Below are positions 15,253 through 32,685 of a DNA stretch of 63,476 bases, piece after piece (positions within the stretch are counted from its first letter, which is position 1; each line of letters begins with the position of its first letter). Below the pieces are notes generated by a model, which saw only the letters and a list, made by a program, of their open reading frames with translations, was not told where the DNA came from and searched no databases. Origin of the DNA: a virus (taxonomy: Duplodnaviria > Caudoviricetes). The stretch spans positions 1-63,476 of the IMG/VR virus record IMGVR_UViG_3300025894_000010. The stretch is one strand, 5' to 3'. The position numbers and the translations under genes were made by a program.

Positions 15253-18200
15253 ATGGCAAGCACATTTAGTAGTACAACATTATCTGGAACGTACAACGAC
15301 GATTGGACAGAAGATGACAATTATCACCAGATACTATTTAACTCTGGAAGGGCACTTCAAGCAAGAGAGTTAACACAACTTCAAACTATGATCTACCAAG
15401 AGATGGGTAGATTTGGACGAAATGTGTTCAAAGAAGGCGTGGCTGTTTCTGCGGGTAACATGGACTGTATAACGGACACTGATTTTGTGAAAGTCACAAT
15501 GACCAGTGGAACCTTTACCGATATTCCTGTTGGATCTGTTATTCAACAAAACCCAGAGAATATCCGAGCAAGAGTAATAGCAGTCAAAGCGACAGGTTCA
15601 GGCACTGTGTCTGCACCCATCACTGATAATACATTGTATATTCAGTACATAGATGGCGCATCCCAGCCTTTGAGTAGCGAGCCTGTACGATTTAGTTCAG
15701 GTGTAGGTAAATCGCTAAGTGTTGTTGGACGTTCTGAAACAATGACCGCTACAGCACTTACTCCTACAGGTTTTAGTACACGGTTTGAAGTAGACGCAGG
15801 CGAGTTTTTTGTTCTCGGGCGATTTGTATATTCAGAACCTCAATCACTCATATTATCTCCTTACACTGCTACGTTTGAGGGTGATATTGGATTTAAAGTC
15901 ATTCAAGAAGTGGTCACTGTAAATGACAGTCCGGCACTCTATGACAATGCTGGCGATACTCCTAACACCGCGAGCCCGGGCGCTGACCGATACAGAATTA
16001 CGCTTCAGTTAACTAACAAGGCTGACCTCGCTGCCGATGACACGTTTGTCTTTCTTGCACGAGTTGAAAATGGCACAATTGTAGAAGAAGTTCAAGAGTC
16101 GGACTCTTACAATAAGATTGCAGATGCTATGGCACTGCGAACAGAAGAAGAGTCTGGTGATTACATTGTTAATCCTTTCACATTAGACTTTGATGAGATA
16201 GACGGTGACACAGAGAACTTGGCTGTCACTATCGGTGCGGGTACTGCTTATGTAAGTGGATATCGTGTTGACAATCCATCACCTATTGAGTTAATTATAC
16301 CACGATCTCAAGCGTTTGAAAGTGTTCCGGGTGAGCCTGTGTCTGTGATCTACGGTAACTATGTTCTTCTTGACAGTGCCCGTGATTTGCCAGAACTGGA
16401 TCTTGGTACTGTTCACAACATGTACTCAGACACAAACGCAACAGAACTTCTTGGTACTACACGAGTTCGTGCGATTGATGCCGCGAGCGATAACATTAAA
16501 CTCTACTTGTTTGACTTTACGTTTAACACCGCATTATCGCTGGGCGATAGTGATCTAGGTAAACTCCGATCAATCAAAGATCCTGCCGCTACTGGTAAGT
16601 ATGCGATACGAAACGAAACAGGCACTGATGCGTTTTTGAATGGCGCAACAGACAACGACTTGTTAATGCCTACAGCCAGACCACGATTAAAAGCCACGTC
16701 AACTGCCGCTGCCGATGGCGGATTCTTATCTACTGCACAGTATAGTCAAACGTTCACTGTCTCTACAGGATCGTTTTCATTGACGCAGTTGGGTAACGGC
16801 TCAGGTCCTCGCAGATACTCAGACAAAGAATTCTGGTTGATCGCCAAGACTGATGGTACTGAAGCGGCATTTACACCAACAGTAACCGAAGCAATGCCTA
16901 GTTATGATGCGACAATCACGGGGCTCTCTAACGTAGAATATAGATTGATCTATTACATTCAAGACACTGAGACTGCCAAGAAGACGAAGACGTTTACGAC
17001 ATCTACTGCCGCTACGTATGCAGTAACTAACGGTGTTGTTGATCTTGGTGTTCCTGATGTTCAACAAGTATCCCTGATTACCAAAGGCACAGTTGCCGGT
17101 GGTATTGATGTAAGCGACCGATTTGTTCTAGATGATGGTCAGCGAGACAACTATTATGATTACAGTCGCCTGATATTAAAAGAAGGTGAGACAGACCCCG
17201 GTGATGTATGGGTTCAGTATACGTACTGGGCACACAGTGGTGTGGGTGGTTTCTATTCTCCAGAATCATATGCTGGTGCTACATATGCAGATATACCCGA
17301 GCATACAACAGCAGACGGTACTGTTATTGATCTGAGAAACTACTTAGACTTAAGGCCAGACAAATCATCTTCGGGTGTTTTTACAAACATCATGGCATTA
17401 CCTCGCAGTGGCACTGCATTTTTAGGTAAAATTGATTACTGGTTACCACGTGCTGACAAGTTGATCGCTACAAAGAGTGGCGAAATCCAAATGCTTTTGG
17501 GTCAACAGTCGCGTGATCCACAATTAAAGCCTACTCCTGAAAACTCTATGGAGTTATATCAGGTTCTCATGAATGCAAATACGGCAGACGCAGACGATCT
17601 TCAGACTCGTGCGATTGAACACAAGCATTACACTATGGCAGATATTGGCAAACTAGAGAATAAGATAGATGATCTTAGAACATATACAGAGTTCAATATT
17701 GCTGAACTCCGTGCGTTCCATACTCCTAGTTTAGATAGTGCGGGCGAAGAACGAGCAGATGCGGGTCTTTCTATAGATCTAGGCGATGATCAGACTGGCT
17801 CTGATACAGAGAACGATGACTATGCCGCATCAATTGATCCTGAAAATCAATTGATTAGACCCAAGGCTAATGAAGACAACATTCGTTTGATTTGTGAGCC
17901 TAACTATGGTACTGTCAATCCCACAATTCCTGGTACTGATCCTGGTATTCTGAAGAAAGGTGACAATGTTTATCTTTCATATGATTCAGATGAGTGGAAG
18001 TTTCAGTCACTCGCTTCACGATCAGTCAATCCAAATCCGTTTGGAAGAGTAGACAATGTAGGCGTCATCAAATTATCTCCTTCATCTGATGAATGGAAAG
18101 ACTCAAAAGAAGATGCTATCAAAGCATTAAGAGGCGCTGGTAAATTAGATGTGAAGCAAGCCTTCTTGTGGAACAACTGGCAGTGGAACTGGAAAGGTCG

Positions 18201-20727
18201 TAATGACGAAGATCTTTGGCAGTCTCGAGGTACTGTAGGCAGATGTGGAAAGCCCACAACTACCTCGCGAGACGCAGTTAACGCAATATCTCCTTATGCG
18301 TCAGAACGTGGTAGAACAGACACTCTTGGATTTGTACGAAGAGTTGTTCAAAACGACACATTAAGAATGCGAGTGGGAAGACGTTATATTGATCTTGCTT
18401 TGATACCTTGGATGAGATCACGTAAAGTCTACTTCAAGGCGCAAGGTCTTAAGCCTAACACTAAGTTCACTCCGTTTTTTGATGGCAAAGATGTATCTGC
18501 ATGGTGTAAAGAAGAAGCCTTTGTTCAGTTCTCTGACAGAACAGACGACAACGGAAACTTGTTTACTCAAAACACATTGACAGGTCACCCCGACACTGCG
18601 TCTGATTTGATCTCAGATGCCAACGGTAATGTTGAAGGATCATTCTTCATTCCTAATCTAAAGCCATCTTATTACTTGACGAAGAAGGGCAAAAGACGTA
18701 GAGTACTTCAGAACTATCTCAGGTTCAGATCCGGTATTCGTGAGTTTAAACTGCTTGATATTAATGTCAATGATTGGGCAGCCGCAGACAGCAAAGCATT
18801 TACATACTACAGTGTATTTGGTGCGATGTGGCACAAATATCGAAACATACTTACAACACGCGGTATGTCATATGCATGGCCATTATCAACTGGTTATGGT
18901 CTGTTTCCCAATGCTTTCAACCAGAAAGAACTCAGAAGAGCAGTCAATGAGGTATCTGCGGGCAGTGTTGGCTTGTATAAACCACAAGTCTCAGGTAGAT
19001 ATGGACCAGACACGACTCCTATTTCTACATTGTCAACATACAATGGAGAGATGGGACAAGTCATATCGGATTATGTGAATGTCAACAACAAGCAGTTTGC
19101 GGGCACAGCAATTATACCCACAAACTTACCACAGAATCCAATGGCACAAACGTTCTATGTGGACAATCCGTTTGGTCTAGTCCTTGCGAAAATAGGGTTG
19201 TTTTTCCAGACAAAAGATGATACACTGCCTATCTCTATTCATATCAGACCTGTTATAAATGGCAAACCTTCTGATAATGATATAGTTCCAGATTCACATG
19301 TATTTAAATCACCTAGTGAGATAAATGCGATTGGTCTGAGTCCTACGTTATCGGTTATCCAAGGTGGCGAAACATCGTTTGTATTTGATGAGCCTGTATT
19401 CTTACAACCTTGGACTCACTATGCAGTTGTGATCACATCACAATCTTCAAACTATAAGTTGTTTAGTGCGAAGACTCGTGAATCTGTGTTAGGTTCTACA
19501 GCAAGAACTGTGTCAACACAGCCTTCACCAGGATCTTTGTTCTTACCACAGAATGGTATTCACTGGTTTGAAGCAAAAGATCAAGACCTCATGATGAGAA
19601 TTGCACGAGCCAAGTTTAACTTAGGTGGTGGTACACTTATGTTAAAGAATGCGGATGCACCTAATGTTCTTCTTGACGATAATCCAATCCGATTGGTGAA
19701 TGACAGTACGGCAATGTATGTGAGAGCGCCTTGTAATGGTCTTCAAGCAGGTGATACTGTTCAAATTAGCGGTGCGACAGATATTACAGATGGTGTTGAA
19801 ACGTTAACTGCATCTAGTAATATTAATCAGATTCTTACCGTGGTCAAGGCTGACATCCACGGCTTCCAAGTAACATTAGGAGCAAAGTGGTTAGGTGAAA
19901 GTATGAGCGGTGGTGGTTCTGAGTGTATCACACAGCAAACACGAGTCTTTGATACTGCAAACCCAACCGTAGAGCAGATTATACCTGAAGGAACATCCGT
20001 TGACATGTCAGCACGATTCATCTCAGGTATTCATGCGAGCGGTGATGTAGCAAATCGTTTTCAGCCTGGTACTGGCTGGTTAACATCCAACTTTGAAAGG
20101 CTTACCGCTGATCAAAACATAAACTTTGATTCGCCGCGAGCAATCTATCACGCAGGTATCACCGAAACTGATAGCGGCATTGGTGGTGCGGTGGCTGGTA
20201 AAAACGCAAGTGCATATGTCAAGTTAGATTTGAAAACGACTAGTGATTATGTTTCACCTATTATTGATTTGCAACGAGCATCATTGACATTGGTAGAACA
20301 ATGCATTGATGATCCTGATCAAGCATCAGCAGATCAAACGATATCTGTGTGGTCTACAGATGAAACTGAACCCTCTGGCGGTAGTACCGGTTCCAAACAC
20401 ATCACAACACCGGTTACGTTGGAAGTCCCTGCTGTAGGTATAGATGTACAAGCAGATCTTTCGCTACCGCCTGGTTCAGGAGTAGACTTTTATTATAGAA
20501 CAGCAGTTGCAGGAGAAGATATTACTCTGAGCAACTGGATCTATAAGCCACCGGTATCATCAGTAGCAAATACTGCGGCTGGACAATTCACCCGAGCAAA
20601 CTATTTGCCAGGTGGTCAAGGTGGTTCTCTCAAAGAGTTCACTCAAGTCCAAACAAAGTATGTGATGAAAGGCACTATTGAATCGCCTGCCATTAGAGGT
20701 CTTAATATTAAGTATCTTGCTACTTAA
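15253..20727 (+). CDS. Large virion structural protein (VrlC/DUF4815-like)
   Basis: Y.DD..EDDNYHQILF..GRALQARELTQLQ, PGADRY, RT.EESGDY, DDGQRDNYY, YTM.DIGKLE, PMAQTF, SPIIDLQR. Confidence 0.8.
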   Translation: MASTFSSTTLSGTYNDDWTEDDNYHQILFNSGRALQARELTQLQTMIYQEMGRFGRNVFKEGVAVSAGNMDCITDTDFVKVTMTSGTFTDIPVGSVIQQNPENIRARVIAVKATGSGTVSAPITDNTLYIQYIDGASQPLSSEPVRFSSGVGKSLSVVGRSETMTATALTPTGFSTRFEVDAGEFFVLGRFVYSEPQSLILSPYTATFEGDIGFKVIQEVVTVNDSPALYDNAGDTPNTASPGADRYRITLQLTNKADLAADDTFVFLARVENGTIVEEVQESDSYNKIADAMALRTEEESGDYIVNPFTLDFDEIDGDTENLAVTIGAGTAYVSGYRVDNPSPIELIIPRSQAFESVPGEPVSVIYGNYVLLDSARDLPELDLGTVHNMYSDTNATELLGTTRVRAIDAASDNIKLYLFDFTFNTALSLGDSDLGKLRSIKDPAATGKYAIRNETGTDAFLNGATDNDLLMPTARPRLKATSTAAADGGFLSTAQYSQTFTVSTGSFSLTQLGNGSGPRRYSDKEFWLIAKTDGTEAAFTPTVTEAMPSYDATITGLSNVEYRLIYYIQDTETAKKTKTFTTSTAATYAVTNGVVDLGVPDVQQVSLITKGTVAGGIDVSDRFVLDDGQRDNYYDYSRLILKEGETDPGDVWVQYTYWAHSGVGGFYSPESYAGATYADIPEHTTADGTVIDLRNYLDLRPDKSSSGVFTNIMALPRSGTAFLGKIDYWLPRADKLIATKSGEIQMLLGQQSRDPQLKPTPENSMELYQVLMNANTADADDLQTRAIEHKHYTMADIGKLENKIDDLRTYTEFNIAELRAFHTPSLDSAGEERADAGLSIDLGDDQTGSDTENDDYAASIDPENQLIRPKANEDNIRLICEPNYGTVNPTIPGTDPGILKKGDNVYLSYDSDEWKFQSLASRSVNPNPFGRVDNVGVIKLSPSSDEWKDSKEDAIKALRGAGKLDVKQAFLWNNWQWNWKGRNDEDLWQSRGTVGRCGKPTTTSRDAVNAISPYASERGRTDTLGFVRRVVQNDTLRMRVGRRYIDLALIPWMRSRKVYFKAQGLKPNTKFTPFFDGKDVSAWCKEEAFVQFSDRTDDNGNLFTQNTLTGHPDTASDLISDANGNVEGSFFIPNLKPSYYLTKKGKRRRVLQNYLRFRSGIREFKLLDINVNDWAAADSKAFTYYSVFGAMWHKYRNILTTRGMSYAWPLSTGYGLFPNAFNQKELRRAVNEVSAGSVGLYKPQVSGRYGPDTTPISTLSTYNGEMGQVISDYVNVNNKQFAGTAIIPTNLPQNPMAQTFYVDNPFGLVLAKIGLFFQTKDDTLPISIHIRPVINGKPSDNDIVPDSHVFKSPSEINAIGLSPTLSVIQGGETSFVFDEPVFLQPWTHYAVVITSQSSNYKLFSAKTRESVLGSTARTVSTQPSPGSLFLPQNGIHWFEAKDQDLMMRIARAKFNLGGGTLMLKNADAPNVLLDDNPIRLVNDSTAMYVRAPCNGLQAGDTVQISGATDITDGVETLTASSNINQILTVVKADIHGFQVTLGAKWLGESMSGGGSECITQQTRVFDTANPTVEQIIPEGTSVDMSARFISGIHASGDVANRFQPGTGWLTSNFERLTADQNINFDSPRAIYHAGITETDSGIGGAVAGKNASAYVKLDLKTTSDYVSPIIDLQRASLTLVEQCIDDPDQASADQTISVWSTDETEPSGGSTGSKHITTPVTLEVPAVGIDVQADLSLPPGSGVDFYYRTAVAGEDITLSNWIYKPPVSSVANTAAGQFTRANYLPGGQGGSLKEFTQVQTKYVMKGTIESPAIRGLNIKYLAT

Positions 20728-20987: not shown

Positions 20988-23900
20988 GTGTCTTCAAGAC
21001 CTTTTAGATTTTCAAATTCTTTAGCCAATGATGGTGCGGTCAAAGAATTTCTGGTATCCGAAGAAGATTGGTTAGCCTATCGTGCGGGTCTATATCTAAG
21101 TAATATTACCACCACTGAAGCAAGTTCACTCACATCTGGTCAAACAGCGAACAGTGTGGACGTTGGTACGTACATTGATACCTTCTATGATGAGAATGCG
21201 GCGAGTGATCCACCTGTTACAAGAACACGAAACTATACAGTAGATGTTAGGTCCGTAGGTGGTGGTCATACCAATACATTTAGAAATCCCGTTGAGTTTC
21301 CACCGTTATGTTATGATGATGATACGATTATTATCAATGTCATCTTTGATACCGAAACTGCACCTACGGGCAATGGGTTTGAAGAACTTCAAGCCAGTTT
21401 AACGTTTAATACCAGTCCCGCTTATATTGTCACTAATGTCACTGCGACACCTGCCGCATCAAATATTAATGGTAATGTTGTCACCTGGGAGAAGTTTACC
21501 AATCCACGTTTAAAGGGTCAGTTCACCGCAACATATGAGATATCATTTACTCAGAACGTTGGCCTCTTTCAAGCGACTCTTGATGTATCATCACAAGATT
21601 CTGAAAACACACCCGCACAGGTAAGTTCTTCTTTTGTTGGAACAACACGGGTAGAAGATAGAAATGCGCCTGGCGCAAGCACCATATCTCATCCGCTATA
21701 CCAAAACAACAATCAAATACCTCTTCAGACAAGTAGTGAGAAAAGAAATCCAGTTTATTTTGATCGTGTGAGAAACGGTCTGAAAGAAATGAATGATAAT
21801 GAACTAGAAGTGATGTGCGCACGAGTCATTTCTAACATTATGCAGAATGAAAGACCTGGTACGTACAGACTCTCCAACGAAGCGCCTAGTGCTGACTACA
21901 CAGCCTATCTTGAAAACATCTTTACTGATACTCGGTCAGACGGTACTGCGATAACATACAGCATATACATCAAGACTTCAGATATAGTACCGACAGAAAT
22001 AAGACCACTTGCAATCAAACGCAAGAACGATAATGTATTTGAAGCATTGCAAGAGATGACTGTACCTCAGATTGACTTCACTTTAGGTGAACGATCTAAA
22101 AAAGTCATTATGGACACGGGCATTGGTACCTATCAGTTAAGAAGCAGTGCGCAAGGTGCTCCCACAGATACTGGTGTATGGCAACCCAGAGGCAAAGCCG
22201 TTGACTCGCGATTAAATTATGACTTTGCGGGTGGCTATGAGGGTGATCGGACCGAAGAATTCCAATATGAGTCTGAATATCAGGCAACCTATATCGGCAC
22301 TTATGTGGCTTCATATGAGGGCATTTATGTTAGTGAATATGAATCAGAGTATATCGCCTCTTATGTAGGTACATACACTACAGAGTATGAAGGTTCATAT
22401 GTCGGTGAATACATTTCAGGATACACGGGTTCGTACATCTCCGAATATGTGTCTGTGTATGAGGCACTCTATACAACTTCATATGAAGGATCATATCTTG
22501 GTCAGTATGACGGCGCAATTGATGTAGAGTTTTTCTCTGACAAGTATGAAGGTTTACCTGTTGAGGAAGTCTATGAGCAACAATTCTATACGGGTACAGT
22601 GTATGATTCAACCTATACAACCACCTATGATTCCAGTTATACAACTGGATACGAGTCTACTTATGAAGGAATTTACACAGGTCAAATAGAAGAGACCTAT
22701 GAAGGATTCTATGAAGGCGATATTGCTGAACAATATATTGCCACTTACGTCGGACAAGTTGAAGAGTCTTACGCAACGACATATACTGGTCAAGTGCCTG
22801 AACAATATACCACACGATATGCTGGACAGATTGCTGAAGATTATGTGGGTGCATACACCGGTCAAGTCATAGAAGACTATACCACGTCTTATGTTGGCCA
22901 AGTACCCGAACAGTATGAAACTGCTTACACCGGTGGTGTTCCTGAACAATATGTCGGTGCATACACTGGTCAAGTCATAGAAGACTATACCACTGCTTAC
23001 GTGGGTCAAGTGCCAGAACAATATGAAACAGCATATACAGGTCAAGTGCCTGAGCAATATGTCGGTGCATACACAGGTCAAGTGCCTGAGCAATATGTAG
23101 GAGCGTACACTGGTCAAGTACCCGAACAGTACGTCGGTGCTTATGTTGGTCAGGTAGAGGAAGATTATACAACTGCTTATGTTGGTCAAGTGCCTGAGCA
23201 ATATGTTGGCGCATACATCGGTCAAGTACCCGAACAATACACAACAGGTTACACGGGTCAAGTACCCGAAGATTATGTTGGCGCATACATCGGTCAAGTA
23301 CCCGAGCAATATGTTGGGGCATACTCTGGACAGATACCCGAAGATTATGTCGGCTCTTATATCGGTCAGATACCCGAAGATTATGTTGGTGCATATCAAG
23401 GTGAAATACCCGAAGATTATGTTGGATCATATGTTGGTCAGATAGCAGAACAATATGCGACATCTTACGTAGGTCAAGTACCCGAGGATTATATTGGCGC
23501 TTATGTCGGTCAGATAGAAGAAGATTATGTTGGCGCTTATGTCGGTCAGATAGAAGAAGATTATGTTGGCGCTTACGTTGGTCAGATAGCAGAACAATAT
23601 ACGACTGGATACACGGGTCAAGTACCCGAAGATTATGTTGGCGCATATACTGGTCAAGTTCCTGAAGATTATGTAGGCGCATATGTCGGTCAAATAGCAG
23701 AACAATATGCAACATCTTACGTTGGTCAAATAGCCGAAGATTATGTTGGTGCATATACTGGTCAAGTACCCGAGCAATATGTAACATCTTATGTCGGTCA
23801 AGTGCCCGAAGATTATGTCGGTGCTTATGTCGGTCAAGTACCCGAACAGTATGAAACTGCTTACACCGGTGGTGTTCCTGAACAATATGTTGGTGCATAT

Positions 23901-26900
23901 ACAGGTCAAGTACCAGAACAATATGTTGGCGCTTACGTTGGACAAGTGCCCGAGCAATACACAACGTCTTATGTTGGTCAGGTAGAGGAATATTACACAA
24001 CTGCTTACGTTGGACAAGTGCCCGAGCAATATGTGGGTGCATACATTGGTCAAATAGCAAAACAATATGTAACATCATATGTCGGTCAAGTACCCGAAGA
24101 TTATGTCGGTGCTTATGTTGGTCAAGTGCCAGAACAATATGTTGGTGCTTACGTCGGTCAAATAGAAGAGTTTTACACAACAGGTTACACGGGTCAAGTA
24201 CCCGAAGATTATGTTGGCGCATATACTGGCCAAGTTCCTGAAGATTATGTAGGCGCATATGTCGGTCAGATTCCTGAGCAATACACAACGTCTTATGTTG
24301 GTCAGATTCCTGAGCAATATATTGGCGCTTATGTTGGACAGATAGAGGAAGATTACACAACATCATATGTCGGTCAAGTGCCCGAAGATTATGTCGGTGC
24401 TTATGTTGGTCAGATTCCTGAGCAATACACAACAGCATATGTTGGTCAAGTACCCGAACAATACACAACGTCTTATGTTGGTCAGGTAGAAGAAGTTTAT
24501 GGTGCTGAGTACATTGGTCAAGTTCCTGAAGATTATGTTGGCTCTTACATAGGTCAAGTACCAGAAAACTACTTGGCTCAATATGAAGGTCAAATATCTA
24601 AACCATATTCAGCAGAATATACCGGTCAAGTACCCGAAACTTACTTTGGAACTTACTCAAGAAACTTTGAAGGCACTTATAGCCGAAACTTTGAAGGCAC
24701 TTATGGCGGTCAGTACTCACGAGACTTTGTAGGGCAGTATTCAAGAAACTTTGAAGGCAATTATATTGGTCAATACGCTAGAGACTTTGTAGGGCAGTAT
24801 TCAAGAAACTTTGAAGGCAATTATATTGGTCAATATGCTAGAAACTTTGCAGGCACTTTTAGTCGAAACTTTGAAGGCACCTACATCGGACAGTATTCAC
24901 GATTGTTTGCGGGGCAGTATGCACGAAACTTTGAAGGCAATTATATAGGGCAGTATTCTCGAAACTTTGCAGGCGTATATTCAAGAAACTTTGAAGGAAG
25001 TTATGTTGGTCAGTATAGTAGAAACTTTGCAGGCACTTATAGTCGAAACTTTGAAGGTACCTATGGTGGTCAATACTCACGAGACTTTGTTGGTCAATAC
25101 GCACGAGCCTTTATTGGTCAATACACGGGCACATACGCACGAAACTTTGAAGGAAGTTATTCTCGGGCCTTTGAAGGCAATTATATAGGCACATACTCGC
25201 GAAACTTTGCGGGTAACTATCTAAACAACTTCGCTGGTCAGTATACTGGTGCGTATAGTAGAAACTTTCTAGGCAACTACGCACGAAACTTTGAAGGAAG
25301 TTATGTTGGTCAGTATAGTAGAAACTTTGCGGGTAACTATGCCAGAAACTTTGCGGGTACATATACTGGTACCTATTCCCGAAACTTTCTTGGTAATTAT
25401 GCCAGAAACTTTTCTGGTCAATACACTGGGACATACTCTCGAAACTTTCTTGGTAACTACTCACGAAACTTTGCTGGACAATACACTGGCACATACTCCC
25501 GAAACTTTCTTGGTAATTATGCCAGAAACTTTTCTGGTCAATACACTGGCACATACTCTCGAAACTTTCTAGGCAACTACGCACGAAACTTCGCTGGTCA
25601 GTATACCGGCAATTATGCCAGAAACTTTGCTGGTCAATACGCGCGAGAGTTTTTGGGTAATTATCTTGGTAACTATGCCCGAAACTTTACTGGTTTCTAT
25701 GCTCGAACCTTTCTAGGCGCTTATGTGGGCAACTACTCACGAAACTTTGCTGGTAACTATGCCAGAAACTTTACTGGTCAATATACGGGCAACTACGCAG
25801 GAAACTTTACTGGTAACTATGCCAGAAACTTTGCTGGTCAGTATACTGGTAACTATGCCAGAAACTTTTTAGGTAACTATGCCAGAAACTTCGCTGGACA
25901 ATACACCGGTAACTACGCTAGAAACTTTTTAGGCAACTACGCTCGAAACTTTGCGGGTCAATATACTGGTCAGTATAGTAGAAACTTTTCTGGACAATAT
26001 ACTGGTCAGTATAGTAGAAATATTACTAACAACAATACGCCTGCAGGCAGTGCTACAATAACTATCGGCTTGACCCCCAACCCTTATGTGTCCGATGAAT
26101 ATGGTTATATGTTCGGTGGCGGCTCTGGATCTATTAGTCCATCATCGTTTTCGTTTGGTATTCCATCTGTCACCATGTATAATTTTAGTAAATTTGTACC
26201 AATCGGCGCGCCGCAGAACCTGCCCATAATCAGGGTATCGGCGGGGGGTACTCACCCTCAGTTCACCTTTACTCGTGTTCAGATAGTAGGTGCAAGTGGT
26301 ACTCATCCGACAGGACCTTACTCAAGCCCCACAAAGAACTTATATACTTCTCCCAGTTTTGGTAGTGGACCCGCCGGCGGTTATTTTGTGAGTACCCCAC
26401 CCTTCGGGCCCAGCCCTCTGACCAATTGGACGTGGTCAGTGCCGTACCCATTCGGAGGTTGGACTGACAGTTTTGATAACCCCGTAGGAACATCATTTGG
26501 TATCAATTTCTTTGCACAGTCAACTACGAGCCAAAACTTTTCTGGACAATATACTGGTCAGTATAGTAGAAACTTTTCTGGTCAATACACCGGTAACTAC
26601 GCTAGAAACTTTGCGGGTAATTATGCCAGAAACTTTGCTGGTCAGTATACCGGTAACTACGCCAGAAACTTTGCGGGTAATTATGCCAGAAACTTCGCCG
26701 GTCAGTATACCGGCAACTATGCCAGAAACTTTGCAGGTAACTATGCCAGAAACTTTGCGGGTACATATGCTGGTAACTATGCTCGAAACTTCTTAGGTAA
26801 CTATGCCAGAAACTTCGCTGGCGCTTACGTTGGCGGCTATGCCAGATTCTTTCTTGGTCAGTATAGTAGAAACTTTGCTGGTAATTATCTTGGCGCATAC

Positions 26901-29900
26901 ACCCGAAACTTTACTGGTAACTATTCTCGTCAGTTTGCTGGTCAATACACCGGTAACTACGCTAGAAACTTTGCAGGTAACTATTTAAACAATTTTGCTG
27001 GTCAATATACTGGTCAGTATAGTAGAAACTTTGCGGGTAATTATTTAAACAATTTTGCGGGACAATATACTGGCAACTACGCACGAAACTTTGCGGGTAA
27101 CTATCTAAACAACTTTGCTGGTCAATATACTGGTCAGTATAGTAGAAACTTTGCGGGTAACTATCTAAACAACTTTTCTGGTCAATACACCGGTAACTAC
27201 GCTAGAAACTTTCTTGGTAATTATGCCAGAAACTTTCAAGGCACTTATATTGGTCAGTATAGTAGAAACTTTGCGGGTAACTATGCAAGACAGTTTTTTG
27301 GTCAATACACCGGCAACTACGCACGAAACTTTCTAGGCAACTATTTAAACAACTTTTCTGGTTCATATTTAGGTTCGTATTCAAGAGTCTTCATAGGACA
27401 GTATTCAAACAACTTTGCTGGACAATATACTGGTGCGTATAGTAGAAACTTTGCAGGTACGTATAGTAGGCAGTTCGGTGGTAATTACATTGGTCAATAC
27501 TCTCGAAACTTTGTAGGACAGTATGCACGAAACTTTGAAGGCACTTATACTGGTCAATACGCACGAGATTTTACAGGTGAATATGCACGAAACTTTGAAG
27601 GCACTTATACTGGACAATACGCACGAAACTTCACTGGTAACTATTCAAGAAACTTTGAAGGTTCGTATACGGGTCAATATGTTAGAGACTTTGTAGGACA
27701 GTATTCAAGAAACTTTGAAGGCACTTATACTGGTCAATACGCCCGAAACTTCACTGGTACGTATACACGAAACTTTGAAGGCACTTATACTGGACAATAC
27801 GCACGAAACTTCACTGGTACGTATAGTAGGCAGTTCGGTGGTAATTACATTGGTCAATACTCTCGAAACTTTGTTGGTCAGTATTCACGCGACTTCATTG
27901 GTGGCTATGAGGGCTTTTATGAAAGAACTCAATCTATTACTTACGTTGGAGAATACGAACGACAAGAGAGTGTTGTTTACCAGGGCTTGTATGAACGTCA
28001 ACAAGACATTACATACCAAGGGCTTTACGAAAGAAGTCAGACCATAGGATATCAAGGCTTATATGAACGCCAACAGGATATTACCTATGAAGGCTTGTAT
28101 GAACGTCAACAGGACATCACATACGAAGGTCTCTACGAACGCCAGCAGGATATTACATACACTGGACTCTATGAACGTCAACAGGATATTACATACACGG
28201 GCTTCTACGAACGTCAACAAGATGCTACCTATGAGGGCTTGTACGAACGTCAACAGGATATCACATACGAAGGTCTTTACGAACGCCAGCAAGATATTAC
28301 CTACACTGGATTGTATGAGCGAACTCAAGAGATCACTTATACTGGACTTTACGAAAGAACTCAAGGTATAACGTACACGGGATTTTATGAAAGACAGCAG
28401 GATCTAACGTATGAAGGTCTTTATGAACGCCAGCAGGATATCACATACACTGGATTGTATGAGCGCCAGCAGGATATTACTTATGAAGGCTTGTACGAAC
28501 GCCAGCAAGATATCACATATGAAGGTCTCTATGAGAGACAACAAGATATCACCTACTCGGGCTTATACGAACGCCAGCAGGATATCACTTACGAGGGTCT
28601 TTATGAACGTCAACAGGACATCACTTATGAAGGCGCTTACGAAAGAACACAGGAAATAACTTACGAAGGTATCTACGGTCGTACTCAAAACATAACTTAT
28701 GAAGGTTTGTACGAACGCCAGCAGGATATTACTTATGAAGGCTTGTATGAACGTCAACAGGATATCACTTATGAAGGCGCTTACGAACGAACAGAAGAGA
28801 TAACGTACACCGGCTTGTACGAAAGACAACAAGACATAACTTATGAAGGTTTGTACGAACGTCAACAGGACATCACATACGTTGGATTATACGAACGAAC
28901 AGAAGAGATAACGTACACAGGTCTGTATGAAAGAACTCAAGGTATAACCTACGAAGGTTTCTATGAACGTCAACAAGACATTACATACACTGGCTTGTAC
29001 GAACGTCAGCAAGATATTACCTATCAAGGTTTCTATGAGCGGCAACAAGACACTACGTACACCGGATTATATGAGCGGCAACAAGACATTACTTATGAGG
29101 GTCTCTATGAGAGACAACAAGATATCACATACACTGGTTTGTATGAACGCCAGCAGGATATAACTTACACTGGATTATACGAACGCCAGCAGGATATAAC
29201 TTACACTGGATTATACGAAAGAAGTGAAGAAGTTACCTATGAGGGTCTCTATGAGAGACAACAAGATATCACATACACTGGTTTGTATGAACGAACTCAA
29301 GGTATAACGTATGAAGGCCTTTATGAGAGACAGCAGAACATAACGTATGAAGGTCTCTATGAAAGACAACAAGATATCACCTACACAGGTGCTTATGAAA
29401 GAACCGAAGAAATAACCTATGAAGGCTTATATGAAAGAACCGAAGAGATAACCTATGAAGGTTTGTATGAGCGAACTCAAGAGATCACTTATGAGGGTCT
29501 GTATGGTCGTACTCAAAACATAACTTACGAGGGTCTTTATGAACGACAGCAAGACATCACTTACTCTGGTGCTTACGAAAGAACGCAGGAAATAACTTAC
29601 GAAGGTATCTACGGTCGTACTCAAAACATAACTTACGAGGGTCTTTATGAACGACAGCAGGATATCACCTACTCAGGTGCTTACGAAAGAACTCAAGAGA
29701 TCACATACACTGGTCTCTATGAGCGACAGCAGGATATTACTTATGAAGGCTTGTACGAACGAACCGAAGGGATAACGTACACTGGATTTTATGAGCGATC
29801 ACAGGACACTACTTACGAAGGCTTGTACACTCGTGAATCGCCTGAAGAATACACTGGATTTTATGAGAGAGAATCTATAGAATCTTATGACGGTGAGATT

Positions 29901-30428
29901 TATGAGACGACATATACCAGTGACTACTCTTCAGCATATACCTCTGAGTATGAGTCATCATATCTCGGAACATATACTGGCTTTTATATACCGTCATATC
30001 AATCCACTTATGTAGGAATATATGTTGCAACTTACGATGCAATAGGTTATACTGGTAGTTATGAGACAACTTACACAGGTCTCTATGATGCGGCATATGA
30101 TTCTGAGTATGAAGCACTGTATGAATCGGCTTATGTGGGTGAGTACGGTGGTGATATTATTACAGCCAACTATGATGGGGCATCATATGATGGTGCGGGT
30201 TACACTAGTGTCTATGATTCTGGTTACAGTGGAATATTTGAAGGCGCGCCTGGCGCAGGCGGTAATAATCTCAATCCTCTTGATAAAGAACTGCCTTACG
30301 AGGGTGCTATATACACTAGTACATACAGCGGTACTGAGTTTTATTCTGGTGTATACGGCGATAGAGACAATCTGTTACAGCCGCCCGTGACTTACGAGAT
30401 ATGGACTCTCTGGTGTAGAGTCGCTTAA
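20988..30428 (+). CDS. Giant mirror-symmetric Tyr-repeat protein, putative hairpin fibre with central tip domain
   Basis: 3146-aa ORF: N-domain, acidic Y-x3 repeats, 55x YxGQxxEx-Yxxx, 114 Y/F tetrapeptides, 172-aa unique domain, 114 tetrapeptides, 55x Yxxx-YERxxxIT, acidic Y-x3 repeats, short C-terminus. The ORF is clear; the function is inferred. Confidence 0.8.
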   Translation: MSSRPFRFSNSLANDGAVKEFLVSEEDWLAYRAGLYLSNITTTEASSLTSGQTANSVDVGTYIDTFYDENAASDPPVTRTRNYTVDVRSVGGGHTNTFRNPVEFPPLCYDDDTIIINVIFDTETAPTGNGFEELQASLTFNTSPAYIVTNVTATPAASNINGNVVTWEKFTNPRLKGQFTATYEISFTQNVGLFQATLDVSSQDSENTPAQVSSSFVGTTRVEDRNAPGASTISHPLYQNNNQIPLQTSSEKRNPVYFDRVRNGLKEMNDNELEVMCARVISNIMQNERPGTYRLSNEAPSADYTAYLENIFTDTRSDGTAITYSIYIKTSDIVPTEIRPLAIKRKNDNVFEALQEMTVPQIDFTLGERSKKVIMDTGIGTYQLRSSAQGAPTDTGVWQPRGKAVDSRLNYDFAGGYEGDRTEEFQYESEYQATYIGTYVASYEGIYVSEYESEYIASYVGTYTTEYEGSYVGEYISGYTGSYISEYVSVYEALYTTSYEGSYLGQYDGAIDVEFFSDKYEGLPVEEVYEQQFYTGTVYDSTYTTTYDSSYTTGYESTYEGIYTGQIEETYEGFYEGDIAEQYIATYVGQVEESYATTYTGQVPEQYTTRYAGQIAEDYVGAYTGQVIEDYTTSYVGQVPEQYETAYTGGVPEQYVGAYTGQVIEDYTTAYVGQVPEQYETAYTGQVPEQYVGAYTGQVPEQYVGAYTGQVPEQYVGAYVGQVEEDYTTAYVGQVPEQYVGAYIGQVPEQYTTGYTGQVPEDYVGAYIGQVPEQYVGAYSGQIPEDYVGSYIGQIPEDYVGAYQGEIPEDYVGSYVGQIAEQYATSYVGQVPEDYIGAYVGQIEEDYVGAYVGQIEEDYVGAYVGQIAEQYTTGYTGQVPEDYVGAYTGQVPEDYVGAYVGQIAEQYATSYVGQIAEDYVGAYTGQVPEQYVTSYVGQVPEDYVGAYVGQVPEQYETAYTGGVPEQYVGAYTGQVPEQYVGAYVGQVPEQYTTSYVGQVEEYYTTAYVGQVPEQYVGAYIGQIAKQYVTSYVGQVPEDYVGAYVGQVPEQYVGAYVGQIEEFYTTGYTGQVPEDYVGAYTGQVPEDYVGAYVGQIPEQYTTSYVGQIPEQYIGAYVGQIEEDYTTSYVGQVPEDYVGAYVGQIPEQYTTAYVGQVPEQYTTSYVGQVEEVYGAEYIGQVPEDYVGSYIGQVPENYLAQYEGQISKPYSAEYTGQVPETYFGTYSRNFEGTYSRNFEGTYGGQYSRDFVGQYSRNFEGNYIGQYARDFVGQYSRNFEGNYIGQYARNFAGTFSRNFEGTYIGQYSRLFAGQYARNFEGNYIGQYSRNFAGVYSRNFEGSYVGQYSRNFAGTYSRNFEGTYGGQYSRDFVGQYARAFIGQYTGTYARNFEGSYSRAFEGNYIGTYSRNFAGNYLNNFAGQYTGAYSRNFLGNYARNFEGSYVGQYSRNFAGNYARNFAGTYTGTYSRNFLGNYARNFSGQYTGTYSRNFLGNYSRNFAGQYTGTYSRNFLGNYARNFSGQYTGTYSRNFLGNYARNFAGQYTGNYARNFAGQYAREFLGNYLGNYARNFTGFYARTFLGAYVGNYSRNFAGNYARNFTGQYTGNYAGNFTGNYARNFAGQYTGNYARNFLGNYARNFAGQYTGNYARNFLGNYARNFAGQYTGQYSRNFSGQYTGQYSRNITNNNTPAGSATITIGLTPNPYVSDEYGYMFGGGSGSISPSSFSFGIPSVTMYNFSKFVPIGAPQNLPIIRVSAGGTHPQFTFTRVQIVGASGTHPTGPYSSPTKNLYTSPSFGSGPAGGYFVSTPPFGPSPLTNWTWSVPYPFGGWTDSFDNPVGTSFGINFFAQSTTSQNFSGQYTGQYSRNFSGQYTGNYARNFAGNYARNFAGQYTGNYARNFAGNYARNFAGQYTGNYARNFAGNYARNFAGTYAGNYARNFLGNYARNFAGAYVGGYARFFLGQYSRNFAGNYLGAYTRNFTGNYSRQFAGQYTGNYARNFAGNYLNNFAGQYTGQYSRNFAGNYLNNFAGQYTGNYARNFAGNYLNNFAGQYTGQYSRNFAGNYLNNFSGQYTGNYARNFLGNYARNFQGTYIGQYSRNFAGNYARQFFGQYTGNYARNFLGNYLNNFSGSYLGSYSRVFIGQYSNNFAGQYTGAYSRNFAGTYSRQFGGNYIGQYSRNFVGQYARNFEGTYTGQYARDFTGEYARNFEGTYTGQYARNFTGNYSRNFEGSYTGQYVRDFVGQYSRNFEGTYTGQYARNFTGTYTRNFEGTYTGQYARNFTGTYSRQFGGNYIGQYSRNFVGQYSRDFIGGYEGFYERTQSITYVGEYERQESVVYQGLYERQQDITYQGLYERSQTIGYQGLYERQQDITYEGLYERQQDITYEGLYERQQDITYTGLYERQQDITYTGFYERQQDATYEGLYERQQDITYEGLYERQQDITYTGLYERTQEITYTGLYERTQGITYTGFYERQQDLTYEGLYERQQDITYTGLYERQQDITYEGLYERQQDITYEGLYERQQDITYSGLYERQQDITYEGLYERQQDITYEGAYERTQEITYEGIYGRTQNITYEGLYERQQDITYEGLYERQQDITYEGAYERTEEITYTGLYERQQDITYEGLYERQQDITYVGLYERTEEITYTGLYERTQGITYEGFYERQQDITYTGLYERQQDITYQGFYERQQDTTYTGLYERQQDITYEGLYERQQDITYTGLYERQQDITYTGLYERQQDITYTGLYERSEEVTYEGLYERQQDITYTGLYERTQGITYEGLYERQQNITYEGLYERQQDITYTGAYERTEEITYEGLYERTEEITYEGLYERTQEITYEGLYGRTQNITYEGLYERQQDITYSGAYERTQEITYEGIYGRTQNITYEGLYERQQDITYSGAYERTQEITYTGLYERQQDITYEGLYERTEGITYTGFYERSQDTTYEGLYTRESPEEYTGFYERESIESYDGEIYETTYTSDYSSAYTSEYESSYLGTYTGFYIPSYQSTYVGIYVATYDAIGYTGSYETTYTGLYDAAYDSEYEALYESAYVGEYGGDIITANYDGASYDGAGYTSVYDSGYSGIFEGAPGAGGNNLNPLDKELPYEGAIYTSTYSGTEFYSGVYGDRDNLLQPPVTYEIWTLWCRVA
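22674..24653 (+). repeat. Coding tandem repeat, 55 x 36 nt (consensus YVGQVPEQYVGA)
   Basis: First unit starts at 22674 and last at 24618; difference 1944 = 54 x 36. Confidence 0.95.
24654..26021 (+). repeat. Coding repeat, 114 tetrapeptides (YSRN/YARN-FxGx-YTGx), outgoing arm
   Basis: 1368 nt, with an aromatic residue every fourth position. Confidence 0.9.
26538..27905 (+). repeat. Coding repeat, 114 tetrapeptides, return arm
   Basis: 1368 nt, identical in length to the outgoing arm. Confidence 0.9.
27906..29885 (+). repeat. Coding tandem repeat, 55 x 36 nt (consensus YEGLYERQQDIT)
   Basis: YER units from 27918 to 29862; difference 1944 = 54 x 36. Confidence 0.95.
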
Positions 30429-30440
30429 TGAGGAAGATCA

Positions 30441-30884
30441 ATGAATCACTATTATTACCAAGACAATGCGTTTTGGACCAATGATACAAAGACCGCTCTT
30501 AAATGCATTAGAGTCAGTAGACTAGAGAACGGCAAAGAAAAAACTGAAGTATTAACCAGCGAACAAGGCGATGGTATTTGGGATTCTATCATTAGTGAAT
30601 TAACCATTCCTGGTATTGATGCATCAAGTGAAAAGCGAAGACAAGAGAAAGAGAATAGTCGTGCCACTCAAATCGTTCGGGACGAGCAACAAAAGCAAGC
30701 CAAAAAACTAGAATCGTTATTTGACCTCAAGATAAAAGCGTTTGAGATAGAAGCAATTAAGAATTGTGAGAACAGAAAACTCCGTTCTAAATTACGCCGA
30801 GCAGAAAATGAAGTTGAAATGAATGCCCTTGCGACTTTAATTATTGCTATTGATATGGGCATATTGGAAGATCCAGATGTCTGA
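30441..30884 (+). CDS. Hypothetical helical protein (possible fibre assembly factor)
   Basis: GAGGAAG RBS; charged helical C-terminus LF.LKIKAFEI..IKN...RKLRSKLRRA. Confidence 0.65.
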   Translation: MNHYYYQDNAFWTNDTKTALKCIRVSRLENGKEKTEVLTSEQGDGIWDSIISELTIPGIDASSEKRRQEKENSRATQIVRDEQQKQAKKLESLFDLKIKAFEIEAIKNCENRKLRSKLRRAENEVEMNALATLIIAIDMGILEDPDV

Positions 30885-31620
30885 AGGTTATGTTGTTGTA
30901 GCGTCAACCAAAAAACTGTTTTACGATATGGCAATCAATCTGATTGATTCTATCAAAGATTTTCATCCTGACGCTCAGTGCGCACTCTTTACTGAAGAAA
31001 GATTTCTTGATGGTAAAGAAAAAATAGTGGATCATCTGGGCTTCATTGAAGATCATAAGCGTTCCAAACTCAAAGGTATGGCAATGAGTCCATACGACAA
31101 GACGTTTTATATTGATGCCGACTGTGAAGTTGAGCATGAAGACATTGCAAAAGTTTTTGATGAATTGAAAGACAATGATTTAGTTTTTACCGGCTTGCCC
31201 GAAGACCGACACTATTGTTATGCAGAGGTATTTTTTGAGGGGGCGCGAAAGCCTGATGGAAAACCCGGCGGCTTTGATCTGTGTGGTGGTGTGTGTTTGT
31301 ATGATATGACTAACCCGCTTGTACGAGAATTTATGAAAGAGTGGTATGAACTGACCGTAGAACAATATGCGGGCAGATGGTGGCCGACGAAAGCAGACGG
31401 CACTGAAGATCTAGAGAATTATCCACAATCATTCAAACGATGGGATCAATTCTCACTCTGGTGGTTGGTCAACAAAGTACCCAAGTACAAAGATCTCAAG
31501 GTAAGTATTTTTGAAGACGATGCGAGATGGAATTATTTCAATGGATACTTGTATAAGCACAACCAAGATCCAGTTGTCATAAGGCACTACTCTAATATAC
31601 AAATGAAAAGAGACCAATGA
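30877..31620 (+). CDS. GT-A-fold glycosyltransferase-like protein
   Basis: GYVVVAS, A.NLIDSIKDF, SPYDKTFYIDAD (DxD), GGVCLY, WDQFSLW, RWN, VVIRHYS. ATG at 30877 overlaps the upstream gene end. Confidence 0.75.
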   Translation: MSEGYVVVASTKKLFYDMAINLIDSIKDFHPDAQCALFTEERFLDGKEKIVDHLGFIEDHKRSKLKGMAMSPYDKTFYIDADCEVEHEDIAKVFDELKDNDLVFTGLPEDRHYCYAEVFFEGARKPDGKPGGFDLCGGVCLYDMTNPLVREFMKEWYELTVEQYAGRWWPTKADGTEDLENYPQSFKRWDQFSLWWLVNKVPKYKDLKVSIFEDDARWNYFNGYLYKHNQDPVVIRHYSNIQMKRDQ

Positions 31621-32306
31621 ATCATAGTTTCAGAAAAGGAATGCAAGACATTCCGCTCAATAATTATGCTTTAAGCAAACTCAAAGAAGTAGAGTGGTTA
31701 ATAACAGATGACAACTATCTAGTAACAGAACCTACTTGTTGGAATCAGAGACACGAACAAGAACGGTTTACTTCTGACGAAGAATTGTTTAAAATAATGG
31801 AGATGGGACGAGGTCATGACGGCTTTCCCGAAGCCATTTATGGTTACTCCATGACAAACAATTTAAAGTTTAAACCCGACAGCACTAGTGCACAAAAGGC
31901 AGAGTTTGGCAAGCGTGTTCAGAGTATGATGAGCAATATCATGCTTTCTTTTAACTTCAAGACCAACGCTTTGTTCACTGTCTATCCTCCTGGTGGATAT
32001 ATCTCGTGGCATAACAACGCAAACGCACCCGCATACAATTTTATATTTACATGGTCTGAGACTGGCGATGGTTGGTTCAAGTATTGGGACATGGAGAAGA
32101 AAGCGATTGTGACAATGCATGATACTCCGGGATGGCAATGCAAGGCAGGTTTCTTTGGTGCCTATTCACATGGTGAAGAGCATTTGTTTTATCATGCCGC
32201 ATCAACAAATTGCACGAGAATGACCGTTGCCTTCACACTTTCCCGCGATGAAACATCGTTAAATTGGCAAGATGACATCATTGAAGAGATAAGTTCTTAT
32301 AAATAA
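31617..32306 (+). CDS. 2OG-Fe(II) oxygenase-like (double-stranded beta-helix) protein
   Basis: YPPGGYISWHNN, FIFTWS..GDGWF, FYHAA....RMTVAF; H-x-N in place of H-x-D. Confidence 0.6.
   Translation: MNHSFRKGMQDIPLNNYALSKLKEVEWLITDDNYLVTEPTCWNQRHEQERFTSDEELFKIMEMGRGHDGFPEAIYGYSMTNNLKFKPDSTSAQKAEFGKRVQSMMSNIMLSFNFKTNALFTVYPPGGYISWHNNANAPAYNFIFTWSETGDGWFKYWDMEKKAIVTMHDTPGWQCKAGFFGAYSHGEEHLFYHAASTNCTRMTVAFTLSRDETSLNWQDDIIEEISSYK
32298..32305 (+). promoter_or_regulatory. Late promoter TATAAATA
   Basis: Overlaps the end of the upstream gene; starts the next unit. Confidence 0.75.
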
Positions 32307-32334: not shown

Positions 32335-32685
32335 ATGGCACACTATGAAGATCTAACGATAGATCAAGGCACAGATGTTGCAATAGAAATCTACTTGGTT
32401 AATCCAGACGGCACTAAGAAAGACCTCACTGCACACACCGCTGCCGCTTCCATGGCTACCAGGTATGATGCGCCAGCGGGTGAAAAGATCGCCTTCACTG
32501 CCGCGATAGGATCACCCGCAACAGATGGCATAGTAAATCTATCACTTACCAATACAGAATCTCAGGCATTAAATCCTAAAAAACGTTATGTATATGATGT
32601 AGAAATATCTGTGGGCTCCGATCCAGTAGTTGTGGAGAGAGTTCTACAGGGGAAAATAACCGTTTCTCCTTCTGTCACTGAGTAA
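32335..32685 (+). CDS. Small beta-sandwich virion protein (fibre adaptor-like)
   Basis: DLTIDQGTD, DLT, G.VNLSLT, RYVYDVEI, RVLQG.ITVSP.VT pattern typical of T4-like fibre clusters. Confidence 0.65.
   Translation: MAHYEDLTIDQGTDVAIEIYLVNPDGTKKDLTAHTAAASMATRYDAPAGEKIAFTAAIGSPATDGIVNLSLTNTESQALNPKKRYVYDVEISVGSDPVVVERVLQGKITVSPSVTE

Follow-up and report, generated by a model that had tools for sequence, protein, structure and literature searches.

Our study of a stretch of viral DNA (Duplodnaviria; Caudoviricetes), namely IMG/VR record IMGVR_UViG_3300025894_000010 at its full length of 63,476 nucleotides, referred to here as the window, revealed a gene for a giant protein whose two repeat arms mirror one another around a non-repeat centre. 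We consider it probable (roughly 0.7) that this protein is a fibre that folds back on itself, whose two termini would lie at the baseplate and whose receptor-binding tip would be formed midway along the chain. An earlier interpretation of the same DNA, made without database searches (the sequence-only reading), had proposed an antiparallel hairpin, and this is supported by evidence that is indirect but convergent, comprising mirror co-variation between the arms, their near-equal lengths and long strands predicted at the arm base. The dimensions it gave were also confirmed. Each arm comprises 1116 amino acids (aa), made up of an outer zone of 55 twelve-residue units and an inner zone of 114 tetrapeptides (tetrads), the zones follow one another in mirror order and the centre that separates the arms comprises 172 aa.

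Mirror co-variation between the two arms

As had been claimed, co-variation links outgoing unit n to return unit 56-n. When the outer zones were set against one another in this register (n+m=56), T at position 2 of the outgoing unit was associated with T at position 8 of the return unit (2 x 2 counts of 37 and 1 over 1 and 16; Fisher p = 9.5e-12), and Q at outgoing position 8 with E at return position 2 (27 and 2 over 0 and 26; Fisher p = 1.1e-13). The association of D at outgoing position 8 with T or S at return position 2 gave p = 3.4e-7 (30 and 4 over 4 and 17). For the first two tests this register was the best of 110 circular registers, and the other 109 (54 antiparallel and 55 parallel) peaked at -log10 p values of 2.3 and 2.9, respectively. 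Mutual information (MI) summed over all column pairs, the check that the sequence-only reading had itself suggested, reached 19.7 at n+m=56 and outscored all 109 other registers (10.7 +/- 1.9, maximum 17.7) and all of 2000 shuffles (10.5 +/- 1.2, maximum 15.2). The individual pairings that had been listed can be read from the unit table: outgoing units 8, 11 and 34 lie opposite return units 48, 45 and 22, which are the sole three Y-G-R-T-Q-N-I-T units, outgoing units 17, 27 and 43 lie opposite return units 39, 29 and 13, and outgoing unit 19 lies opposite return unit 37. Of the 17 outgoing units with T at position 2, 16 are matched by a return unit with T at position 8; among return units of the latter kind, number 42 alone has an outgoing partner without T.

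The inner zones also follow a mirror order, with Y-x-R-N opposite F-x-G-x and Y-x-G-x opposite Y-x-G-x, and 112 of the 114 positions are complementary in this sense. Within the twelve-residue unit, the antiparallel register p+q=10 had the highest summed MI (3.77, compared to 2.54, 2.21 and about 1.6 for other antiparallel registers; these sums were added by hand from the MI matrix). Its residue pairs, given as outgoing:return, are Y1:Q9, G3:R7, V5:Y5, E7:G3, Y9:Y1 and G11:I11. Such a register would place each glycine of the aromatic face opposite a bulky residue, and the co-varying pairs 2:8 and 8:2 on the other face. Proline, which occupies position 6 in 36 of the 55 outgoing units, fits a strand edge with incomplete hydrogen bonding under the general geometry of beta-sheets.

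The composition of the two arms is likewise matched. The first position of the tetrad is aromatic in 224 of the 279 tetrads of each arm, and these comprise 178 Y and 46 F in either case; at the other 55 positions arm 1 has Val or Ile and arm 2 has Gln, Glu or Ser. The earlier description of an aromatic residue at every fourth position is thus accurate for the inner zone, whereas in the zone of twelve-residue units it applies to two of three tetrads only. His, Cys, Met and Trp are absent from both arms (His, 0/1116 residues in each). The glycine spacing is not that of collagen, in which every third residue is glycine; the period here is 4, with Gly at tetrad position 3 in some tetrads.

A mirror pattern of this kind might be a by-product of DNA history, through inverted duplication, gene conversion or mis-assembly, and have no structural meaning. 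Arrays such as these grow and change through duplication, and duplicated three-unit blocks occur in both arms; furthermore, independent contigs do not span the arrays. However, both arms are encoded on the same strand in one frame, and the reverse complement of arm 1 showed 23.6% identity to arm 2 at the mirror register of the outer zone, where the mean of all shifts was 25.3%. Over whole arms the identity was 29.6%, inside the spread of other shifts (up to 36.7%). A DNA palindrome or inverted duplication was rejected on the basis of this background level of identity and of the inverted pairs found, of which there were five only, 16-23 nt in length. When matrices of unit similarity from the two arms were compared in mirror order, all sites gave r = 0.349, the best of 110 registers (random permutations, 0.00 +/- 0.06), whereas synonymous sites gave r = 0.075, which ranked second of 110 registers and lay approximately 2.4 standard deviations above random permutations. 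This marginal and non-unique correlation is insufficient to account for the signal, and a shared duplication history as sole cause was rejected. As there is no DNA symmetry and the correlation at synonymous sites is weak, the signal is carried by the amino acids, and this points to selection for matched residues rather than to a common duplication history. The consensus units of the arms differ, yet specific residue classes are matched, and the mirror property recurs in a homologue, in a sister contig and across the family, as described below. With regard to assembly, Logan contigs of four runs contain local pieces of the arrays identical to the window, although every contig breaks inside the arrays and none spans them, and joints whose sides measured 20-22 letters in repeats were left out of account; mis-assembly is expected to destroy a mirror register, not to create one. 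An origin in DNA history is therefore largely refuted already, and we regard it as extremely improbable.

Arm symmetry in homologous proteins

Relatives sharing the N-terminal domain (N-domain) were sought with aa 238-445 of the window protein in a full HMMER scan of 1.84 billion representatives, which returned 303 representatives at E<=1e-3, 200 at E<=1e-10 and 45 at E<=1e-30 (50% clustering). Among the best 150 of these 303, nearly all complete members carry an end motif, I-E-T-Y-T-L-Y-V-R-x-x, nine residues before the stop. The window protein ends in a diverged form of this motif, T-Y-E-I-W-T-L-W-C-R-V-A, and the end of a protein on a sister contig (L011) is identical to it. A local alignment to aa 356-407 scored at least 60 in 116 complete proteins. 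Most members of the family are 400-1500 aa in length, and the window protein is among the most expanded. The centres of family members are diverse in both length and sequence, while the N-domain and end motif are conserved. The spacing of aromatic residues among the 116 complete members was 4 in 79, 8 or 12 in 28 and 6 or 10 in 9, and the length of the higher-order repeat differs between members. An aromatic period that is mostly 4, 8 or 12, combined with a varying higher-order period, is easier to reconcile with a repeat at the level of strands than with coils of one fixed size.

The equality of the arms was quantified in complete proteins with both terminal modules (n=116), after fragments and proteins extended at the C-terminus (for example, P0005 and P0006) had been dropped; 99 of the 116 contain an aperiodic stretch of 40 aa or more in their interior. 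By this crude measure the median arm asymmetry of the 99 members was 0.10, with values of <0.1 in 48 and <0.2 in 67, and the lengths of the two periodic sides were correlated (Pearson r 0.81, Spearman 0.58). A null in which the middle was placed uniformly gave an asymmetry of 0.50, with a minimum of 0.285 in 5000 simulations. The prediction that homologues keep equal arms was therefore borne out for the majority, and in the sister phage described next, but not for all; P0006 and the homologue in Phage C48C1 are unequal. In the two C-terminally extended proteins the end motif is followed by further large domains, and in P0006 the N-domain is preceded by approximately 2000 aa; the zones of P0006 follow the order A-B-centre-A'-B', such that unlike zones would face each other.

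The sister contig L011 is 5'-truncated, and its centre is 60% identical to that of the window and lies in the same position. Its inner arms comprise 133 and 133 segments (532 and 533 aa), compared to 114 and 114 in the window, and the lengths of the two arms have thus changed together. At mirror shift 0, 124 of the 133 positions were complementary in type, compared to at most 84% at 161 other shifts, and irregular spots near the turn are mirrored. The return arm of L011 has 39 twelve-residue units where the window has 55, and its outgoing arm is interrupted by the contig end. Compensatory evolution of length in tandem repeats is rarely seen as cleanly as in this matching of 114/114 and 133/133 between sister phages.

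A second homologue, L007, provides an independent replicate of the mirror pattern. It encodes 3243 aa with an N-domain 48% identical to that of the window protein and is built from different repeats, 29 residues long in the outgoing arm and 28 in the returning arm. Its arms measure 1365 and 1347 aa between landmarks, with 326 and 328 aromatic-anchored segments. Five-residue segments of one arm lie opposite F-x-G-Q tetrads of the other, and these roles swap between zones. At a single mirror offset, 40 of 46 special segments face a partner of the opposite type and none faces one of the same type; this was the best of 242 registers, the next scoring 34 and 32, one unit off, and the best parallel register scoring 26. 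A short member, P0079 (540 aa), has an A-B-turn-B-A layout with approximately 20 residues at the turn and eight-residue Y-V-G-N-P-x-I-x units on both sides.

The sole relative among 50,697 phage records was WJE88074.1 of Phage C48C1 (OQ984149.1, Kyanoviridae), which is annotated as hypothetical and whose N-domain shares 32% identity over aa 264-471 (E 2e-29). It resembles the window protein in its N-domain, end motif, aromatic tetrad repeats and the three genes that follow it. An exact duplicate block of approximately 75 residues near aa 2055-2205 of this gene (L001:11668-21711) may represent a recent duplication or an assembly artefact. Two other contigs, L002 and L003, cover the start of the outgoing arm only. 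In L003:10001-11945, which is partial and 89% identical, approximately eight outgoing units (10-17) are found in another stop-free frame, followed by a shifted frame, and this change reflects a genuine frameshift or a fault of assembly within the repeats.

The sequence-only reading did not recognise the protein as a described family; in the database searches, no named Pfam or PHROG family was identified and no relative was found in the PDB or BFVD. Queries with the N-domain, centre and C-terminal end gave no match in Pfam or PHROGs, six short family members gave no meaningful match in PHROGs and the centre matched none of the 50,697 phage records. A sequence profile search of the PDB returned a single chance hit (E 0.31), and the best score of the N-domain in the ESM Atlas was 0.77, to a DUF11 cluster, which is below a usable level. 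Hits of the arms in Pfam and PHROGs (NA-iREase3, DUF1677, phrog_35255 and others) were rejected as summed repeat noise, as no individual stretch passed alone. A literature search, which did not take in supplementary gene tables (PMC7029224, PMC10665884), found no description of the family or of a fibre whose whole shaft folds back.

A probable fold-back fibre and the alternatives to it

Structural evidence came from an AlphaFold2 model of P0079, based upon a family alignment of 78 sequences. The N-domain was predicted with a predicted local distance difference test (pLDDT) score of 92-98. One continuous strand (255-289) leaves the N-domain and another (502-538) finishes in the C-terminal motif, with pLDDT by block of 97, 96 and 78 over 251-280 and 76, 94 and 98 over 511-540. 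Strands of this length, as assigned by DSSP, need a partner, and each is the sole candidate for the other; therefore, we infer a two-stranded ribbon at the base of P0079, read from secondary-structure strings rather than coordinates, which would reach the first aromatic tetrads on both sides. A search of this model against the PDB and BFVD with Foldseek found nothing at E<=0.001. A prediction of two chains, outgoing units 5-20 and return units 36-51, made with neither alignments nor controls, scored 0.00 and weighs neither way. The structure prediction proposed by the sequence-only reading was consequently informative for the arm base of a short member, whereas the two-chain mini-construct gave no answer.

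In the proposed fold-back fibre, the N-domain and the conserved C-terminal strand would sit together at the virion end as one base module. The chain would go out via arm 1, form the 172-aa domain at the distal tip and come back via arm 2, with outgoing residue i against return residue j such that i+j is constant, over approximately 1100-1250 residues per strand. One face of the paired strands would carry aromatic residues at each fourth position, alternating with Gly, and the small residues of one strand would lie opposite the bulky residues of the other. The polar face would hold compensating pairs, V:Q or T:T and Q:E or D:T. The tip domain, which is the fast-evolving centre, would bind the host, and the length of the arms would set the reach, with insertions into one arm tolerated only if matched in the other. 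By analogy with other fibres, it would probably be a trimer.

The length of the fibre would depend on the fold and may be about 0.04-0.4 um. Fully extended strands would span approximately 368 nm per arm (1116 x 3.3 A), and the 0.37 um put forward by the sequence-only reading stands as an upper bound; the figure itself is fold-dependent, because the single-sequence model described below drew the inner arms as solenoids, which would be far shorter. A more specific form of the fold-back reading, which we offer tentatively and at somewhat below even odds, is that the arms form one two-stranded antiparallel beta-ribbon with over 1100 residues in each strand and a shaft that could reach approximately 0.4 um, and represent an undescribed fibrous fold. 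Register in such a ribbon would be kept by the knobs-into-holes packing of the aromatic/Gly face together with the co-evolving polar face, the receptor-binding domain would stand at the hairpin turn, both termini would be locked in one baseplate module and arm length would evolve via paired mirror-image insertions.

Several results weigh against a fold-back fibre. In the window, the inner zone is so regular that shifts by multiples of five tetrads give a type complementarity little below that of the mirror register, and co-variation of its side chains is weak (identity at position 2, 12/22; permutation p = 0.03). The direction within the twelve-residue unit is weakly resolved, as the best parallel register had a summed MI of 3.1 compared to 3.77, and no mirror relation links the irregular segments of the two outer flanks. 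Among homologues, asymmetry was at least 0.2 in 32 of the 99 members, the arms of P0006 are of about 160 and 318 residues, and P0003 differs from P0004 by a 114-aa insertion on the outgoing side only, with no mirrored partner, and by a diverged middle. The zones of P0005 follow the order A-B-C-centre-A'-B', so that pairing would bring unlike zones together and require a separate turn for a 555-aa zone. The C48C1 homologue, for all its likeness to the window protein, is a protein of 3347 aa with 17 aperiodic islands and many globular insertions, and its arms are not simply equal. The pairing of the arms is deduced from statistics and secondary-structure strings, with no contacts seen, and the middle of the arms in the P0079 model is unstructured (pLDDT <40). 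Lastly, AlphaFold2 without an alignment modelled aa 1439-2090 (mean pLDDT 50.9) with the inner arms as a solenoid of 20 residues per turn, in a strict strand-turn pattern with strands of 6, 6 and 2 residues (pLDDT approximately 70-79 in arm 1, 36-67 in arm 2 and <30 in the centre).

This last model favours an arrangement in which each arm is a compact beta-solenoid, with a coil of 12, 20 or 28 residues, and the two lie side by side and antiparallel with unit n touching unit 56-n. By our own estimate, the resulting rod would be only approximately 40 nm long (77.8 coils x 4.8 A). Mirror co-variation at the level of units and equal unit counts are equally compatible with such an arrangement, and beta-solenoids, which include pentapeptide-repeat proteins, insect antifreeze proteins and the ice-nucleation protein, similarly consist of short tandem repeats with ladders of identical residues. 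However, AlphaFold2 is known to over-predict solenoids for repeats in the absence of alignments, and the model built with the family alignment shows the start of the repeats as continuous strands of 35-37 residues and no coils. A 12-residue coil would have to accommodate two Tyr, Leu and Ile in the return units, judged by the geometry of antifreeze proteins. The coil size would also have to switch from 12 to 20 within one arm, and be 28/29 in L007; unit length is inconstant both within and between members, and the constant feature is instead an aromatic spacing of 4 or a multiple of it (107 of 116 members). No Pfam repeat family was matched, mirror-matched arms would be needless in a single solenoid and for typical members, whose arms comprise 100-350 aa, the shaft would measure only a few nanometres. 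We regard side-by-side solenoids as unlikely.

The pairing could also take place between chains, with extended chains arranged head-to-tail so that arm 1 of one pairs with arm 2 of the next, the centres lie mid-filament and each end of the filament bears one N-domain and one C-terminal end. Co-variation and equal arms are unable to tell contacts within a chain from those between chains. However, a fibre requires one attachment end and one binding end, and conserved termini with a variable middle are as expected of a base and a tip. In P0079 and similar short members, the mirrored zones are separated by only approximately 20 residues, which is turn-like, and the two long strands of the P0079 monomer appear, from secondary structure, to lie beside its own N-domain. 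Moreover, the needle of T4 gp37 folds back within each chain (PMC9659904). We consider a head-to-tail filament highly unlikely, and pairing within one chain would be preferred.

The T4 gp37 tip needle is the nearest known system in concept to a fold-back fibre. Its chain is reported to fold back at the receptor-binding head (Bartual et al. 2010, cited in PMC9659904), its shaft is described as six antiparallel strands from three chains (PMC9659904) and its dimensions are given as about 150 x 25 A (PMC3004832). The likeness would lie in outgoing and returning antiparallel strands with a binding domain at the turn. In T4, however, folding back is confined to the terminal part of the fibre, whereas in the window protein this would involve the whole shaft, approximately 1100-1250 residues each way, at a scale more than 10 times larger and with both termini at the base. 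The core of gp37 is built on iron bound by His in His-x-His motifs, and these are lacking in the window arms, which contain zero His. With no sequence match in the PDB profile search and no fold match for the P0079 model in Foldseek, the window protein is not a member of the gp37 family.

The canonical fibre proteins T4 gp12, gp34 and gp36 are described as parallel trimers with shafts of triple beta-helix or beta-spiral (PMC3004832). The window protein resembles them in its position among baseplate and fibre genes, its repeat-built shaft and an adjoining gene that resembles an assembly factor. In canonical fibres, parallel chains run from an N-terminal attachment to a C-terminal tip, whereas the tip proposed here would be mid-chain and the C-terminus at the base. 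The claim of a departure from canonical T4 fibres needs qualification: the proposed design differs from most of the T4 fibre, but the gp37 tip needle is a small-scale precedent for folding back.

Host range depends on the fibres of a phage, and known fibres are trimers of parallel chains that read from base to tip. If the proposal is correct, a whole-shaft hairpin with its binding domain mid-gene and both ends at the base would constitute a different building plan; the tip would not be at the C-terminus, and such genes would therefore be annotated differently. For the engineering of host range this would mean an exchangeable module in the middle of the gene, and for protein design a four-residue code for a beta-ribbon that keeps register and is tunable in length. 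Should the two-stranded ribbon be real, no known intramolecular hairpin would come near it in length, and it would offer marine T4-like phages a tunable reach. The family concerned is large, as judged by its 303 representatives, and without a name in Pfam or PHROGs.

Gene layout, neighbourhood and source phage

The features of the giant gene and its neighbours are given in Table 1. The first residues that follow the GTG start agree with the starts of homologues. The N-domain consists of a variable insert (approximately aa 60-235) and a conserved core terminating in a G-x-W...R-G-x-A-x-D strand. In the outgoing inner zone, tetrads are mostly grouped as 20-residue units (Y-x-G-x, Y-x-R-N, F-x-G-x, Y-x-R-N, F-x-G-x), and the central domain interrupts one Y-S-R-N / F-S-G-Q unit. 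Long open reading frames (ORFs) on the minus strand overlap the repeat arrays and are read here as a by-product of the repeats.

Table 1. Position and description of the giant gene, its parts and neighbouring genes in the window
Feature	Position	Strand	Description
1824-aa protein	15253-20727		Between the wedge genes and the giant gene; phrog_358 (E 2e-283); Pfam DUF4815
Whole giant gene	20988..30428	+	3146 aa, about 358 kDa (calculated); GTG start; single ORF
N-terminal domain	20988..22208	+	aa 1-407; candidate baseplate-attachment module
Outgoing flank	22209..22673	+	aa 408-562; irregular aromatic tetrads, including a 32-aa irregular stretch
Outgoing arm, outer zone	22674..24653	+	55 twelve-residue units; consensus Y-V-G-Q-V-P-E-Q-Y-V-G-A
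Outgoing arm, inner zone	24654..26021	+	114 tetrads
Central domain	26022..26537	+	172 aa, non-repeat; candidate distal tip / receptor-binding domain
Return arm, inner zone	26538..27905	+	114 tetrads
Return arm, outer zone	27906..29885	+	55 twelve-residue units; consensus Y-E-G-L-Y-E-R-Q-Q-D-I-T
Return flank	29886..30386	+	Irregular aromatic tetrads and a 20-aa Gly/Pro-rich loop
C-terminal end motif	30387..30425	+	Diverged variant of the family motif; proposed pairing with the last strand of the N-domain
Three downstream genes	30441..32306	+	147, 258 and 229 aa; candidate assembly or modification factors, membership of the system uncertain
116-aa gene	32335-32685		phrog_1084 (E 2e-19); phrog_3304, L-shaped tail fibre protein assembly (E 5e-12)
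2773-aa tail-fibre protein	33893-42214		phrog_5342 (E 1e-97) and phrog_4527 (E 7e-83), tail fibre and short tail fibre

Baseplate wedge genes (phrog_219, phrog_438) lie upstream of the giant gene. They are followed by the gene for the 1824-aa protein, which is probably a VrlC-like large baseplate protein of the kind that replaces T4 gp7 in marine myoviruses. In pelagimyophages and cyanomyophages, the region after VrlC is described as a hypervariable host-recognition cluster with tail fibres, and in most pelagimyophage genomes the genes downstream of VrlC are given as tail fibres (PMC7029224). The position of the giant gene, after the wedge genes and the 1824-aa gene and ahead of the 116-aa and 2773-aa genes, speaks for a role as a fibre. 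The three genes downstream share 34%, 53% and 37% identity with those that follow the C48C1 homologue; in L011 the giant gene is likewise followed by the 258-aa and 229-aa ORFs, and in L007 by ORFs of 159 and 256 aa. Searches of these downstream genes against the PDB and NCBIfam returned nothing usable. The 258-aa protein contains a D-x-D-like stretch, and its sub-threshold Pfam hit to glycosyltransferase family 2 (E 0.059) is not evidence of function. At a place equivalent to that of the 116-aa gene, C48C1 bears an annotation for L-shaped tail fibre assembly. The 2773-aa protein had no match in Pfam.

The source record is linear and estimated to be 36% complete. Its gp6-like wedge protein was compared to the 50,697 phage records, and the best identities were to Phage C48C1 (38.5%), Methylophilales phage Melnitz (35.5%), Pelagibacter phage HTVC008M (34%) and Synechococcus phages (approximately 31%). 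As these relatives reach at most 38.5% identity, the source is taken to be an uncultured marine T4-like myovirus. Near-identical words of the giant gene were found in marine metagenome runs of 20 studies.

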